A stretch of 64,000 nt of DNA from Escherichia coli (GTDB lineage: Bacteria; Pseudomonadota; Gammaproteobacteria; Enterobacterales; Enterobacteriaceae). Both the position numbers and the translations under genes were made by a program. The stretch is from the NCBI RefSeq assembly GCF_050320075.1, contig NZ_CP190018.1; one strand, 5' to 3'. The number at the start of each line of letters is the position of its first letter. Position 1 is the first letter of the stretch. This document shows positions 23,755 through 48,730 of this stretch, one piece after another. The notes under the pieces are model-generated. The model was given only the letters and a program-made list of their open reading frames with translations, was not told the DNA's origin and made no database searches.

Positions 23755-24007
23755 TCGCTAAATAATACAGCAACCTTTAATAATCTTCTGATGAATAAAG
23801 ATTATCTCATATATTAATTTTATGAGATTTTTTTAGGATTATATCAAGGAGAAGAAACGAACTTATTAAGCTAGAATAGCCACGGGTGCTTGAGACTGTT
23901 TGTCTCAGGTATTCACCGAAAGGCAGACAGAGAAAAGCCCCACCTGACTATAAATCAAAGTGTACTGCACCCATTTTGTTGGACGATGAAATGGAATAGC
24001 CCCTAAT

Positions 24008-37387: not shown

Positions 37388-37806
<419 letters not shown>

Positions 37807-44142: not shown

Positions 44143-45414
44143 TTACTCAATAAGCTTCAACAGTGGCGACAAGCATAACAAAATGCCGTACAGCAGAATC
44201 AGCCAGGCTTTAAACCCGCGAAGTTTTTCCAGTTGTGCGACTTTATAGATCAGGAAAAATGGAATGAGGCACGACACAATGCCATATAACGGGCTTCCCA
44301 ACTGAAAGAACACCAGCACCGATACACGAAACGAAACCCAAATCGTCAACGTAATGACGATAAAAGCGCAGATCGCCAGAGTCAGCATGCGTGAGTTAAT
44401 TTTCTTGGTATCAATAATTCGGCTTAACAGATTGAGAATAATGCCTTTAATAGCCTCGTGGAAACCGAGATAAATGCCAAAGAATGCGGTCAGTACGGCA
44501 AAGATATTCAGCACCGTAGAGGTGATATGAATGATATGCCCAGGGATCACCTGCGCGGCCAGTGCCAGTGCCGAGATATTTTGTTCAAAGGCAGAAACGG
44601 CTTCTTCGTGGCTAATTGAGAAAGTAAACGAAAAGGCAAAAAACAGGATCACCGCGATGAGCGTGATATAACTAATTCGGTGGGTACGCAGCGCGAGCCG
44701 GGTTGCCAGTACTTTATCTGCTTCCCGTTTACGATAGGCAATATTCATTGGGTTAAGTACCTGAATAAATACTGCAGAAAAGAAGCAAAATGGAATGGTA
44801 AGCAGGACATCGCGGAAAAAGACGGAGGCTTGCGGGAAGGCGGTTATATTGGTGAAATTCCAGTGCGGGATCATCGCAAAACCGAACACGACGATAATCC
44901 CTACTTTGACCACCACCATTGGCCCGGAAATCTTAAACAGTAATCGTTCACCACCAGACGCAATTGCCACCAGTACGGCGAAAATGGCGACTTTATAAAG
45001 TAGAGATTGTGAAAGATCGGCATCGGTTAAACCGAAGGTTTTCAGGTACGAGGCGCTGTCGAAAACCACGGAGAGAGAGTAGATAAAAATCCCGTGGATA
45101 ATCATCAAAAAGTAGATAACCCCGAGGAAAATTCCCCAGTTCTTCCCCAGGTAATGACTGATAATATCGGTGTAGTCATTACAGGAATCGCTTTCAGAAA
45201 GGGTTTTTAAATAAATGTCCTGCACTACCCAGGTGGCAGGATAAGCAATGATCGCTGCGGTAATAAATACCCAAATTCCCTTCAAGCCAATTTGTACTGG
45301 CATCAGCACGGTTCCGGCACCAATCGCCATGCCTATGCATAATAAAACCCAGCCGAAGTCGTAGCGTGTAAACGGCAATTTCTGATCGTGTTTCGGTAGT
45401 GTGTTGTGCTGCAT
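44143..45414 (-). CDS. yhjV: HAAAP-family amino-acid transporter homologue, 423 aa
   Basis: ORF track 44143..45477; start placed at ATG 45414-45412 ([22 protein letters not shown]...). Confidence 0.8.
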
Positions 45415-45774
45415 AAAGTCCTGTCCAGAAAGAAGTCGGCCTCGCAAAAATGAATAAACCCAGTTTCTCTTGCGCAACAGGTGGAGAAGTCGAATACGCA
45501 GTATGTAAAAAATGAGGCAACAGATTCACTGGGGAGGTCGCGAGGAGGCGCAATTCTACAAAATTGCGCATTTCACTACCAGTCTGGAGTCAGCTCGGAT
45601 ATGAACTGCAACTATTGCAAATAAAGAAATTAAGCTGGAAGGCATCGCGCAATGAGGAAGATTGCCGGGTGCTGACGGTAAAAAGCAATCGTAAAATCAG
45701 CGGCAAGCCGGAAAGGTTCCGGTGAGGCGCAATGTTGCGGGGGCTTAATCCCTGGTGGCATTGGTTGCTGGAGA

Positions 45775-45840
45775 GAGAAAACCCCCGCACGTTGCAGGTA
45801 TGCACCTGACAACACCACGGGGGCCATTCTTGCATCCAAA
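45775..45840 (-). ncRNA. rdlD: Rdl-type antisense sRNA, copy 1 (approximate ends)
   Basis: Minus-strand promoter -35 TTGTAA (45876-45871), 17-bp spacer, -10 TATTCT (45853-45848); minus-strand hairpin over 45823-45782 followed by U-run; predicted length about 66 nt, antisense to the ldr leader. Confidence 0.45.
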
Positions 45841-45889
45841 CAATACAAGAATAGCCGCGAAACGTTGTCATTACAACTCAGGCGGCTAT

Positions 45890-45997
45890 ATGACGCTCGC
45901 AGAGCTGGGCATGGCCTTCTGGCATGATTTAGCGGCTCCGGTCATTGCTGGCATTCTTGCCAGCATGATCGTGAACTGGCTGAATAAGCGGAAGTAA
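45890..45997 (+). CDS. ldrD: Ldr type I toxin peptide, 35 aa, copy 1
   Basis: MTLAELGMAFWHDLAAPVIAGILASMIVNWLNKRK; last 36 codons of ORF-track 45755..45997. Confidence 0.8.
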   Translation: MTLAELGMAFWHDLAAPVIAGILASMIVNWLNKRK

Positions 45998-46258
45998 CGT
46001 GTCAGACGGGCGTCAGGCTGCCGTAATGGCAATTTGCGCCCGGACCAGGCCGCAGGGATAAAACTCTGCGGCCTTTTTCGTAAGAAAAATGCAACGGTTG
46101 CAAGCGGATAATATTCTGCTGAATGCACAGCACAGAGTGAAGAAGTGATGGATTTCGACGAACAAAAATGGCCGTAGAATCAGCGGCAAGCCGGAAGGGT
46201 TCCGGTGAGGCGCAATGTTGCGGGGGGCTTTATCCCTGGTGGCATTGGTTGCTGGAGA

Positions 46259-46324
46259 GAGAAAACCCCCGCACGTTGCAGGTATGCACCTGACAACACC
46301 ACGGGGGCCATTCTTGCATCTAGA
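46259..46324 (-). ncRNA. Rdl-type antisense sRNA, copy 2 (approximate ends)
   Basis: Same promoter and terminator architecture as copy 1, shifted by 484 bp. Confidence 0.45.
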
Positions 46325-46373
46325 CCATTCAAGAATAGCCGCGAAACGTTGTCATTACAACTCAGGCGGCTAT

Positions 46374-46481
46374 ATGACGCTCGCAGAGCTGGGCATGGCC
46401 TTCTGGCATGATTTAGCGGCTCCGGTCATTGCTGGCATTCTTGCCAGTCTGATCGTGAACTGGCTGAACAAGCGGAAGTAA
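46374..46481 (+). CDS. Ldr type I toxin peptide, 35 aa, copy 2
   Basis: MTLAELGMAFWHDLAAPVIAGILASLIVNWLNKRK; last 36 codons of ORF-track 46215..46481. Confidence 0.8.
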   Translation: MTLAELGMAFWHDLAAPVIAGILASLIVNWLNKRK

Positions 46482-46741
46482 CGTGTCAGACGGGCGTCAG
46501 GCTGCCGTAATGGCAATTTGCGCCCGGACCAGGCCGCAGGGATAAAACTCTGCGGCCTTTTTCGTAAGAAAAATGCAACGGTTGCAAGCGGATAATATTC
46601 TGCTGAATGCACAGCACAGAGTGAAGAAATGATGGATTTCGACGAACAAAAATGGCCGTAGAATCAGCGGCAAGCCGGAAAGGTTCCGGTGAGGCGCAAT
46701 GTTGCGGGGGCTTTATCCCTGGTGGCATTGGTTGCTGGAGA

Positions 46742-46807
46742 GAGAAAACCCCCGCACGTTGCAGGTATGCACCTGACAACACCACGGGGGCTAATCTTGA
46801 CTCTAGA
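46742..46807 (-). ncRNA. Rdl-type antisense sRNA, copy 3 (approximate ends)
   Basis: Same architecture shifted by a further 483 bp; body carries several substitutions relative to copy 2. Confidence 0.4.
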
Positions 46808-46856
46808 CCACTCAAGAATAGCCGCGAAACGTTGTCATTACAACACAGGCGGCTAT

Positions 46857-46964
46857 ATGACGCTCGCAGAACTGGGCATGGCCTTCTGGCATGATTTAGC
46901 GGCTCCGGTCATTGCTGGCATTCTTGCCAGTATGATCATGAACTGGCTGAACAAGCGGAAGTAA
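46857..46964 (+). CDS. Ldr type I toxin peptide, 35 aa, copy 3
   Basis: MTLAELGMAFWHDLAAPVIAGILASMIMNWLNKRK; last 36 codons of ORF-track 46689..46964. Confidence 0.8.
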   Translation: MTLAELGMAFWHDLAAPVIAGILASMIMNWLNKRK

Positions 46965-47014
46965 CGTGTCATGCGGGCGTCAGGCTGCCGTAATGGCAAT
47001 TTGCGCCCGGATCA

Positions 47015-47045
47015 GGCCGCAGGGGTGAAACTCTGCGGCCTTTTT
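47015..47045. terminator. hairpin terminating ldr copy 3 and lying 6 bp beyond the bcsG stop on the other strand
   Basis: GGCCGCAGGGGTGAAACTCTGCGGCC followed by TTTTT; same element follows ldr copies 1 and 2. Confidence 0.6.
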
Positions 47046-47050
47046 CGTGC

Positions 47051-48730
47051 TTACTGCGGGTAAGGCACCCAGTCGCCGCCGTTCAGGCGAACGTACGGTT
47101 TATCCTGGTATTGAATAACTACTGCATTTGAGTTCTCTGAGACCGGTGCTGTTTGTGGCAACCCACTGGTGAGTTTTTTCCAGTCAACATTGTCTTCGGT
47201 GAAAATCTTGCCATCAAGAACGCGAACCACCAGATCGGAGATAGCCAGGAAGCTGCTCGGTTGGTCGATGACAATCGGTGCCCCCTGATGTGGTGCCTTC
47301 ATGCCGAAGAATTTCACCCCAACGGGGACGTCTGTGATAGACGGGCTAGGGATATCACGTAGGCCAGATACCTGCATTCTGTCGCCCTTCAGCGCGCCGC
47401 CGTGTTCCGGCACCACGACCACCATCACTTTACGACCCGATTTCTCCAGTTCAGTAAAGAAGGCGTCCAGTTCATCAAAGAATTTCTGCGCCCGCGCTTT
47501 GTAATCCGCTGTTTTGCTGACGCCCGGATAATGGTTGCCGTCATGCAGTGGAAGCGTGTTGTAGAACGTGGCACTACGGCTGTTTTTATCTTTTTCGGTA
47601 ACGTCCAGCCAGCGGTTAAGCACGGCGGTATCGTCATAAACCGGCGAACCATCAAAGCCCAGCAAAATAACCGGCAGATTTGTTTGATCCATCAATTCGG
47701 TCTGCATGCCGCCATTTTCGCGAACTTCTTTCAAAAAACCGCCGAACTGGCCGTTATGTCCCATCATCAGGTGCTGGGTAAAGCCCAGTTTCGACAGGTT
47801 ATCAAACAGATAGCAGTCGTTATTTGCCGGTTGATACAGATTAGTGTGCGAAGTCTGCCCGCAGCTGGCGCGCAGTAAACGGATCGCCGCCGGGCCACTG
47901 TAGGAGGTGGCGGAGTTAAAGTTCTTGAACTCAATATCGAAATGCGACCACAGCGGATGCGACATCAACCCGGCGGCTTCAATATCCGACCAGGAAAGCG
48001 AACAGATATTAATCACCAGTAGTTCAAATGGTTGAGCATCAGCGGGCAGCGAAGACGGGAAGGTCGATTTACGTTTCGCCTCCGCGTTATAGAAATTATT
48101 CAGCCAGGCGTTAAGGTTCGCCGTTGTTGGCGGTGCAGTTTGTGCGGGCATATCACCCACTACCGGTGCGCCACCCGTCGCCGCAACGGTTGCCGCTGCG
48201 TTGCCACCCGTCGTTGTTACAGTGGTCGTCGGTTGACCGGCTGGCCACAAGGAGAAACTTGGTCCCGCCAGGGTAAGTACGTTCAGCCATAGCAGAATGG
48301 CAACCACAAAAACGGTAATGCGAATCCATTGTGACAGGAATAACCAGGCCACTAATAAAACAAAAATGGCCCCAATCATCTGCCAGTTAATAAAGCGTGT
48401 GACAAGGTCGATTAAATAATCGGTACTGAACCCCGCCACCTGCGAACCCTGGCTCATTATGCTTTCCGGGCCAGGCAACCAGGTGTCATGCCAGAACAAA
48501 GCAAAGCCGATCGGCAGGGCAATCCAGTGGCGTAAGCGATGCAGGCTGTAGCGCGGAATGGGCATCAGCAGAAACGCGGCAAACACCAGATTGAGGAGCG
48601 GATGGAAGTTAAGATATCCCGCCCACAACAGGCCGAACTTAACCAGAAAATAGAAGTTCCAGCCGGAAAGGCCGCGCCAGTATTGCCAGAGGGAAGAAGG
48701 CATGGCGGTATTTTGCGTAAATTGAGTCAT
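47051..48730 (-). CDS. bcsG: cellulose phosphoethanolamine transferase, 559 aa
   Basis: ORF track 47051..48730. Confidence 0.9.

Follow-up and report, generated by a model that had tools for sequence, protein, structure and literature searches.

Escherichia coli K-12 (MG1655) carries a single ldrD/rdlD toxin-antitoxin pair, LDR-D, between yhjV and bcsG, while the tandem triplet of ldrA, ldrB and ldrC (LDR-A/B/C) is located elsewhere, between kdsA and chaA. According to the summary in PMC4147584 of the work of Kawano et al. (2002), overproduction of LdrD kills K-12 cells and condenses the nucleoid, and the pairing of Rdl with the mRNA is shown for the K-12 ldrD/rdlD pair. There, RdlD is encoded opposite the long 5' untranslated region (UTR); it leaves the ribosome-binding site free and yet prevents the toxin from being made. 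From a wider comparison, Fozo et al. (2010; PMC2887945) inferred an LdrD and an LdrB group, followed by lineage-specific duplications and losses. More than one pair at the yhjV-bcsG position has also been described: Kim et al. (2017; PMC5435950) reported three ldrD/rdlD pairs between bcsG and yhjV in BL21(DE3).

Two other systems resemble Ldr/Rdl in part. Like Ldr/Rdl, Ibs/Sib is multi-copy and tandem and has cis-encoded antisense antitoxins, and its paralogues vary in short recognition segments; Sib RNAs repress their cognate ibs mRNAs only (Han et al., 2010; PMC2943612). Unlike Rdl, Sib covers the whole ibs open reading frame (ORF), and the discrimination between paralogues is experimental for Sib but only predicted for Rdl. 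In hok/sok, as in ldr/rdl, the target of the antisense RNA is a part of the 5' UTR that precedes the ribosome-binding site of the toxin; the toxin family is unrelated.

Here, we describe a locus in a stretch of 64,000 nucleotides of E. coli DNA (contig NZ_CP190018.1), referred to as the window, in which three LDR-D-type units lie between yhjV and bcsG. Very probably, these units form an array that is normal for E. coli, old and polymorphic, with three complete type I toxin-antitoxin modules of the ldrD/rdlD type in tandem.

Architecture of the array

TRF finds a single array at positions 45690–47048, with a period of 484 bp, 2.8 copies, 96% matches, no indels and a score of 2541. It is flanked on the left by yhjV (44143–45414) and on the right by bcsG (47051–48730), both on the minus strand according to the ORF list and the RefSeq annotation. 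The start codons of the three ldr genes, at 45890, 46374 and 46857, are spaced by 484 and 483 bp, in agreement with the unit length of about 483 bp given by the original prediction. The extent that it gave, 45692–47047, is slightly shorter than that found by TRF. Its three units stand, but the array consists of 2.8 rather than three periods of 483/484 bp, because the third unit lacks the 104-nt spacer present on units 1 and 2. The position between yhjV and bcsG, with three LDR-D units, is confirmed by TRF, the ORFs, the matches to Rfam family RF01813 (see below) and the flanking genes. The ldr ORF, its terminator and the Rdl gene are intact in all three units, each of which also has a putative Rdl promoter, read from the sequence.

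The two inter-unit spacers, delimited by sequence comparison at 46075–46178 and 46559–46662, differ from each other by one mismatch. Among 14 spacers from seven strains, the first 45 nt are nearly invariant, with one substitution in B1.H1.1 and one 1-nt end gap, and the promoter-proximal half is highly variable. When the spacer was compared by short-word BLAST with the two flanks and with K-12 LDR-A/B/C, only chance matches of 8–13 nt came up; the spacer is a piece of the ancestral repeat unit and not a junction derived from the flanks.

Toxin genes and ldr transcripts

On the plus strand, unit 1 encodes the 35-residue peptide MTLAELGMAFWHDLAAPVIAGILASMIVNWLNKRK (45890–45997), which is identical to WP_001295224.1, the Ldr variant met most often at yhjV-bcsG in the sampled strains. 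Unit 2 encodes this peptide with M26L (46374–46481, plus strand; WP_000170738.1) and unit 3 encodes it with V28M (46857–46964, plus strand; WP_001521561.1); these are exactly the differences that had been predicted for the three LdrD-like peptides. The unit 3 peptide, the one that was run against Pfam, matches PF13940 (Ldr_toxin) over residues 1–35 of 35 with E = 2e-25, and the unit 1 and unit 2 peptides are one or two residues away from it. RefSeq (PGAP) calls all three ORFs Ldr family toxin, presumably using some rule other than the NCBIfam HMMs, as an NCBIfam HMM search with the three peptides matched no family. No further Ldr-like peptides were found among the translated ORFs of the 64-kb window.

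Downstream of each of the three ORFs, the terminator scan located an 11-bp GC-rich hairpin followed by a T-run on the plus strand, bearing out the prediction of a separate terminator for each unit. These terminators are at 46047–46079 in unit 1 (hairpin 46047–46074), 46531–46563 in unit 2 (hairpin 46531–46558) and 47014–47046 in unit 3 (hairpin 47014–47041), the last one abutting the 3' end of bcsG.

No promoter was found when 45480–47120 was scanned with a strict sigma-70 consensus; therefore, the ldr and rdl promoters given here are putative and were assigned by eye. Candidate −10 hexamers for the ldr mRNA, all on the plus strand, are TAAAAT at 45692–45697 in unit 1 and TAGAAT at 46175–46180 in unit 2 and at 46659–46664 in unit 3. 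These hexamers coincide with the unit boundaries. The −35 region of unit 1 falls in unique flanking sequence, and those of units 2 and 3 fall in the spacer. An ldr mRNA starting at the unit boundary would be about 375 nt long, a length that agrees with the ldrD mRNA of Kawano and co-workers, which is reportedly about 370 nt. The predicted 376-nt ldr RNA has a strong computed fold (z = −7.6), in which the sequence GGCGCAA close to the 5' end pairs with UUGCGCC just upstream of the terminator and the start-codon region is buried. A similar long-range 5'–3' closure is a feature of the hok mRNA, the likeness being one with the predicted fold of the full-length ldr mRNA.

The region of the Rdl loop contains an ATG (45800 in unit 1) that starts an ORF continuing in frame into ldr, and the same ORF is found in all three units of the window. 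Coupling to a leader ORF, ldrX, in the manner of hok/sok has been proposed for ldrD as a hypothesis (PMC4147584). The in-frame upstream ORF was considered as a candidate ldrX and dropped, as it is not conserved throughout: three of 24 D-type units from other strains (units 1 and 4 of 042 and unit 1 of O111) have it broken or lack the ATG, and the upstream ORF of LDR-A/B/C is in another reading frame. This incomplete conservation may be a further difference from hok/sok.

Rdl antisense RNAs

The original prediction of a 66-nt Rdl on the opposite strand of each unit is borne out by three full-length matches to RF01813 (rdlD), covering model positions 1–66 of 66 with 81.7–87 bits, where the gathering score is 50. 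The RNAs are located on the minus strand at 45776–45841 in unit 1 (81.7 bits; 5' tail GUUUGGAUGCAAGAAUG), 46260–46325 in unit 2 (81.8 bits; 5' tail GUCUAGAUGCAAGAAUG) and 46743–46808 in unit 3 (87 bits; 5' tail GUCUAGAGUCAAGAUUA, which is the K-12 rdlD allele). In the predicted folds, 11 unpaired nucleotides at the 5' end are followed by a long terminator hairpin, with z ranging from −3.2, the value for unit 1, to −4.0. In each unit, the Rdl 5' end is 49 nt upstream of the ldr ATG and there is no overlap with the ORF or the ribosome-binding site. Putative rdl promoters, also on the minus strand, were assigned at 45848–45876 in unit 1 (−35 TTGTAA, 17-nt spacer, −10 TATTCT), 46332–46360 in unit 2 and 46815–46843 in unit 3; the proposed −10 TATTCT lies 6 nt before the Rdl 5' end.

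Sequence variation in Rdl is concentrated at its 5' end. All six differences between the three Rdl RNAs of the window are within nt 1–17, and nt 18–66 are identical. Between units 1 and 3, six of the 20 differences are inside this 17-nt tail (Fisher p = 8e-5). In a set of 24 units from 10 strains, the tail has a diversity of 0.19, compared to 0.025 for the ORF and 0.040 for the whole unit; within arrays, tails differ at 23.8% of positions and ORFs at 2.6%. At least eight discrete tail variants can be distinguished; their position in the array varies from strain to strain, and they are also present in a divergent E. coli cluster, in Escherichia sp. E1V33 and in E. whittamii. For cognate pairs, the predicted energy of the tail duplex is −25 to −27 kcal/mol, whereas non-cognate pairs give −6 to −24 kcal/mol. 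Neighbouring units never share a tail in seven E. coli arrays and two arrays of other Escherichia genome clusters. That tails are always distinct within an array does not hold as a general rule; it fails in K-12 LDR-A/B, in the kdsA-chaA array of E. whittamii and in Kluyvera cryocrescens.

Comparison with K-12 and BL21(DE3)

Pairwise identities between the 379-bp core units of the window are 97.1%, 95.5% and 94.7%, corresponding to 11–20 differences per pair. In the same alignments, the units are 95.0–98.7% identical to K-12 LDR-D and 77–79% to LDR-A/B/C; out of 35 peptide residues, 33–34 are the same as in LdrD and about 21 the same as in LdrA. The higher identity to LDR-D and the yhjV/bcsG synteny place all three units in the LdrD subgroup, not with LdrA/B/C.

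K-12 LDR-D has the same flanks as the window array, its peptide is one or two residues apart from those of the window, and its RdlD is identical to the Rdl of window unit 3. It differs in consisting of one unit without spacer and in having Phe at position 3 of the peptide (F3), where all three window copies have Leu (L3). The K-12 LDR-A/B/C locus has the same tandem-triplet architecture, and blocks of the 5' UTR and the Rdl terminator stem are conserved; however, it is at another locus, has a period of 535 bp, shares only 21 of 35 peptide residues and contains an unrelated spacer. A literature search for the additional gene names ldrE and ldrF returned only noise.

The BL21(DE3) triplet (NC_012892.2) is like that of the window in locus, copy number, 483-bp period and spacer family. 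Its bcsG-proximal unit is 98.7% identical to window unit 3 and has the same Rdl tail allele. The order of the alleles is different: the allele of window unit 1 is found in BL21 unit 2, and that of window unit 2 is missing from BL21. Copy 3 of BL21 encodes the F3 variant of K-12, whereas the window copies carry M26L and V28M, and the BL21 spacer haplotype near the ldr −35 region is unlike that of the window.

Copy number across E. coli and related species

A 3001-bp query, containing the array and about 800 bp of each flank, was compared with the complete E. coli genomes of RefSeq (5,426 genomes). The 40 best-listed records are all 100% identical to the query over 3001 bp, i.e., at least 40 complete genomes contain this very sequence, each with three PGAP-annotated Ldr family toxin genes. 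These 40 records are from humans, dogs, gulls, chickens, water and food and from many countries; several of the identical strains may be ST38. The number of records at least 99% identical to the query is 230. The arrangement seen in the window is fixed in a lineage of dozens of independently finished genomes.

To estimate copy number, 60 rows were taken at even steps through the ranking of 5,443 matching records. One copy at yhjV-bcsG was found in 23 of the 60 records (K-12 lines, O157:H7, O55:H7 and LF82), two copies in six (B1.H1.1 and O111:H8 strain 9662), three copies in 20 (BL21(DE3)) and four copies in nine (042 and FCI1), the strains in brackets being examples. In the remaining two rows, the locus is split by an insertion sequence and a plasmid matches bcsG only, respectively. 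Rows with 74% query coverage correspond to four copies, as checked directly in 042 and FCI1; for two of the nine records, four copies were assigned by analogy. More than one unit (two to four) is present in about 60% of the sampled chromosomes and three copies in about one third, frequencies that are only rough because complete RefSeq genomes are skewed to clinical and laboratory lineages. In this 60-row sample, three units are found about as often as one. Being both published and annotated in RefSeq, the three-copy state at yhjV-bcsG is already known and is an ordinary copy-number variant.

The Ldr locus adjacent to bcsG is syntenic in Salmonella enterica subsp. arizonae and diarizonae, Citrobacter, Kluyvera, Pseudocitrobacter and other Escherichia, with one genome considered per species. 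In these genomes, most species have one copy, Escherichia sp. E1V33 and the divergent 'E. coli' cluster have two, and Kluyvera sichuanensis has three.

Age of the array and origin of the K-12 single copy

Units of the window have close relatives in other strains: unit 3 is 98.7% identical to K-12 LDR-D, the same value as for BL21 unit 3, and between unit 1 and unit 3 of FCI1 the identity is 98.4%. As the units are 3–5% diverged and each is closer to a unit of another strain, the array is old. The mean pairwise difference among the 24 units from 10 strains is 0.040, compared to 0.011–0.013 in the adjacent parts of yhjV and bcsG of the same strains.

The K-12 locus is the BL21(DE3) locus minus exactly 966 bp, or two periods. 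Read from the right, the two are identical over 1745 bp, a stretch that reaches 7 nt beyond the start of the unit; read from the left, the identity extends to about nt 120 of the unit, except for two single-nucleotide differences in yhjV. The F3 residue of K-12 LdrD is found in BL21 in copy 3 only. The single copy of K-12 is best read as the product of a two-unit deletion in a BL21-like triplet, whose units 1 and 3 would have recombined. A deletion is preferred to an insertion on grounds of parsimony, given the distinct alleles of BL21 units 1 and 2. Duplication of a K-12-like single copy could not yield the array, because the spacer is absent from single-copy loci and has no match in the flanks.

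Discussion

In the working proposed for the array, each unit would give rise to an ldr mRNA of about 375 nt, the 3' half of which codes for the 35-residue hydrophobic toxin, and the strand opposite the ldr 5' UTR would give rise to the 66-nt Rdl, which would pair with the mRNA and stop toxin translation. That transcription, toxicity and repression take place in the strain of the window is suggested by the intact state of the parts. Copy number, one to four in E. coli, most likely shifts via unequal homologous recombination between units. No evidence contradicting an old polymorphic array was met.

The original prediction took the locus for a strain-specific local amplification, or else for a repeat-collapse issue. 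From a viewpoint confined to K-12, an expansion does suggest itself, and O157:H7, O55:H7 and LF82 have a single unit as well. However, a recent, strain-specific amplification of a K-12-like LDR-D unit is very unlikely: the units differ from each other by 3–5%, carry different Rdl tail alleles and each have a closer relative in another strain, and duplicating a K-12-like sequence could not give the array with its 104-nt spacer, which single-copy loci lack and which resembles neither flank. References with three units at this position include the at least 40 genomes identical over array and flanks and the BL21(DE3) triplet, and three-copy arrays, about as common as single copies, make up about one third of the sampled genomes. 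Tandem repeats of about 480 bp are prone to short-read mis-assembly, and for an AIEC strain, one paper speculated that the other LDR locus had been assembled wrongly (PMC7232551). An artefact, be it false expansion here or collapse of the repeats in the one-copy references, is nevertheless extremely improbable, with three units that can be told apart by 11–20 differences per pair and the same array sequence coming from dozens of independently finished genomes. In addition, K-12 and many of its derivatives consistently have one copy, and K-12 and BL21 differ by a clean 966-bp indel within otherwise identical sequence.

A functional element might be added to the old polymorphic array, in which the units are kept as separately regulated modules and selection diversifies the Rdl 5' tail, each antitoxin preferring its own ldr mRNA. 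The confinement of the Rdl differences in the window to nt 1–17 and the higher predicted stability of cognate tail duplexes are in line with this, as are the tail diversity, which exceeds that of the whole unit and, within arrays, that of the ORF, the lack of tails shared by neighbours in nine Escherichia D-locus arrays and the recurrence of alleles across clusters. The cognate-only repression in Sib/Ibs (PMC2943612) would be a precedent. Nevertheless, we consider such selection doubtful. The promoter-proximal half of the spacer is highly variable, too, and the tail may be weakly constrained sequence with old haplotypes; the 49 nt common to all Rdl copies could permit cross-repression; and neighbours with identical tails do occur, in the three arrays named above. 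With some 8–10 alleles, arrays in which all tails are distinct would arise fairly often by chance (about 0.08 by a rough estimate), and the arrays compared are phylogenetically non-independent. It is likewise rather unlikely that the 17-nt single-stranded tail is a hypervariable specificity determinant and that the arrays are collections of old, trans-specifically maintained antitoxin alleles. If true, unequal crossing-over would reshuffle a small set of non-cross-reacting modules, with each toxin under its own antisense control.

As an old polymorphic array, the locus has little discovery value in itself; the type I toxin-antitoxin family is well known, and this variant of it is catalogued. 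Since the single pair of K-12 seems to have arisen by deletion and two to four units are present in about 60% of the sampled genomes, K-12 is no neutral reference for this locus. Outside K-12, the use of ldrD primers and probes and studies of Ldr toxicity, persistence and rdl knock-outs should allow for several near-identical toxin genes with distinct antisense tails.

Copy number and variation of the ldr array

Taking exactly 966 bp, or two periods, out of the three-unit yhjV-bcsG locus of BL21(DE3) gives the locus of K-12 (strain J53), with its single LDR-D unit; the remaining sequence is near-identical. The F3 variant of the K-12 LdrD peptide is found, among the BL21 copies, only in copy 3. 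The single copy of K-12 thus looks like a deletion derivative. The K-12-specific F3 residue also occurs in an LdrD-like peptide encoded by a 503 bp contig with a coverage of 0.66 in an assembly labelled 'Bacillus sp.' (NZ_JABWSY010000055.1), for which contamination with laboratory E. coli K-12 is probably the source.

In the spacers between units, the first 45 nucleotides (46075-46119 and 46559-46603 in the window) are near-invariant across all 14 spacers from seven strains, the exceptions being one substitution in strain B1.H1.1 and one single-nucleotide gap at the end. The 60 nucleotides that follow occur as two strongly different haplotypes; the window has the rarer one, which is shared with B1.H1.1. 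Within the units, differences from one to the next cluster in the 17-nucleotide 5' tail of the Rdl antisense RNA (45826-45841, 46310-46325 and 46793-46808), with a diversity of 0.19 versus 0.040 over the whole unit. Identical discrete tail variants are seen again in further strains and in further Escherichia species.

Predicted ldr mRNA fold and upstream frame

In the predicted fold of the ldr mRNA, a GGCGCAA segment near the 5' end pairs with UUGCGCC directly before the terminator (45726-45732 with 46036-46042 in unit 1, with equivalents in units 2 and 3). This predicted long-range closure would resemble that of hok mRNA, and both segments are also kept in LDR-A/B/C, the separate Ldr triplet of K-12. 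In each of the three window units, an ATG opposite the Rdl loop begins a frame of 30 codons that continues in-frame into the ldr ORF (45800-45889 in unit 1, with equivalents in the other units). This frame is broken in a few units from other strains, and in LDR-A/B/C it is not conserved.

Other RNA features and insertion sequences

On the plus strand, two RtT RNA matches of about 100 bits each lie in tandem after a tRNA-Pro (CGG) gene (37388-37800). Further upstream, an Rfam match to the sok antitoxin (23884-24037, plus strand; 88 bits) lies near a cspA thermoregulator match (25764-26191, minus strand) and is immediately followed by an ORF (24008-24529, plus strand) that has the appearance of a putative IS3-family transposase ORF A. 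Together, the sok match and the adjoining ORF may represent a hok/sok locus broken by an insertion sequence, as is the case for hokA in K-12. In strain 2015C-3163 (NZ_CP027219.1), an integrase-core (insertion sequence) gene is annotated under the match to the yhjV-bcsG Ldr array, indicating that this array is also open to disruption by IS insertion.
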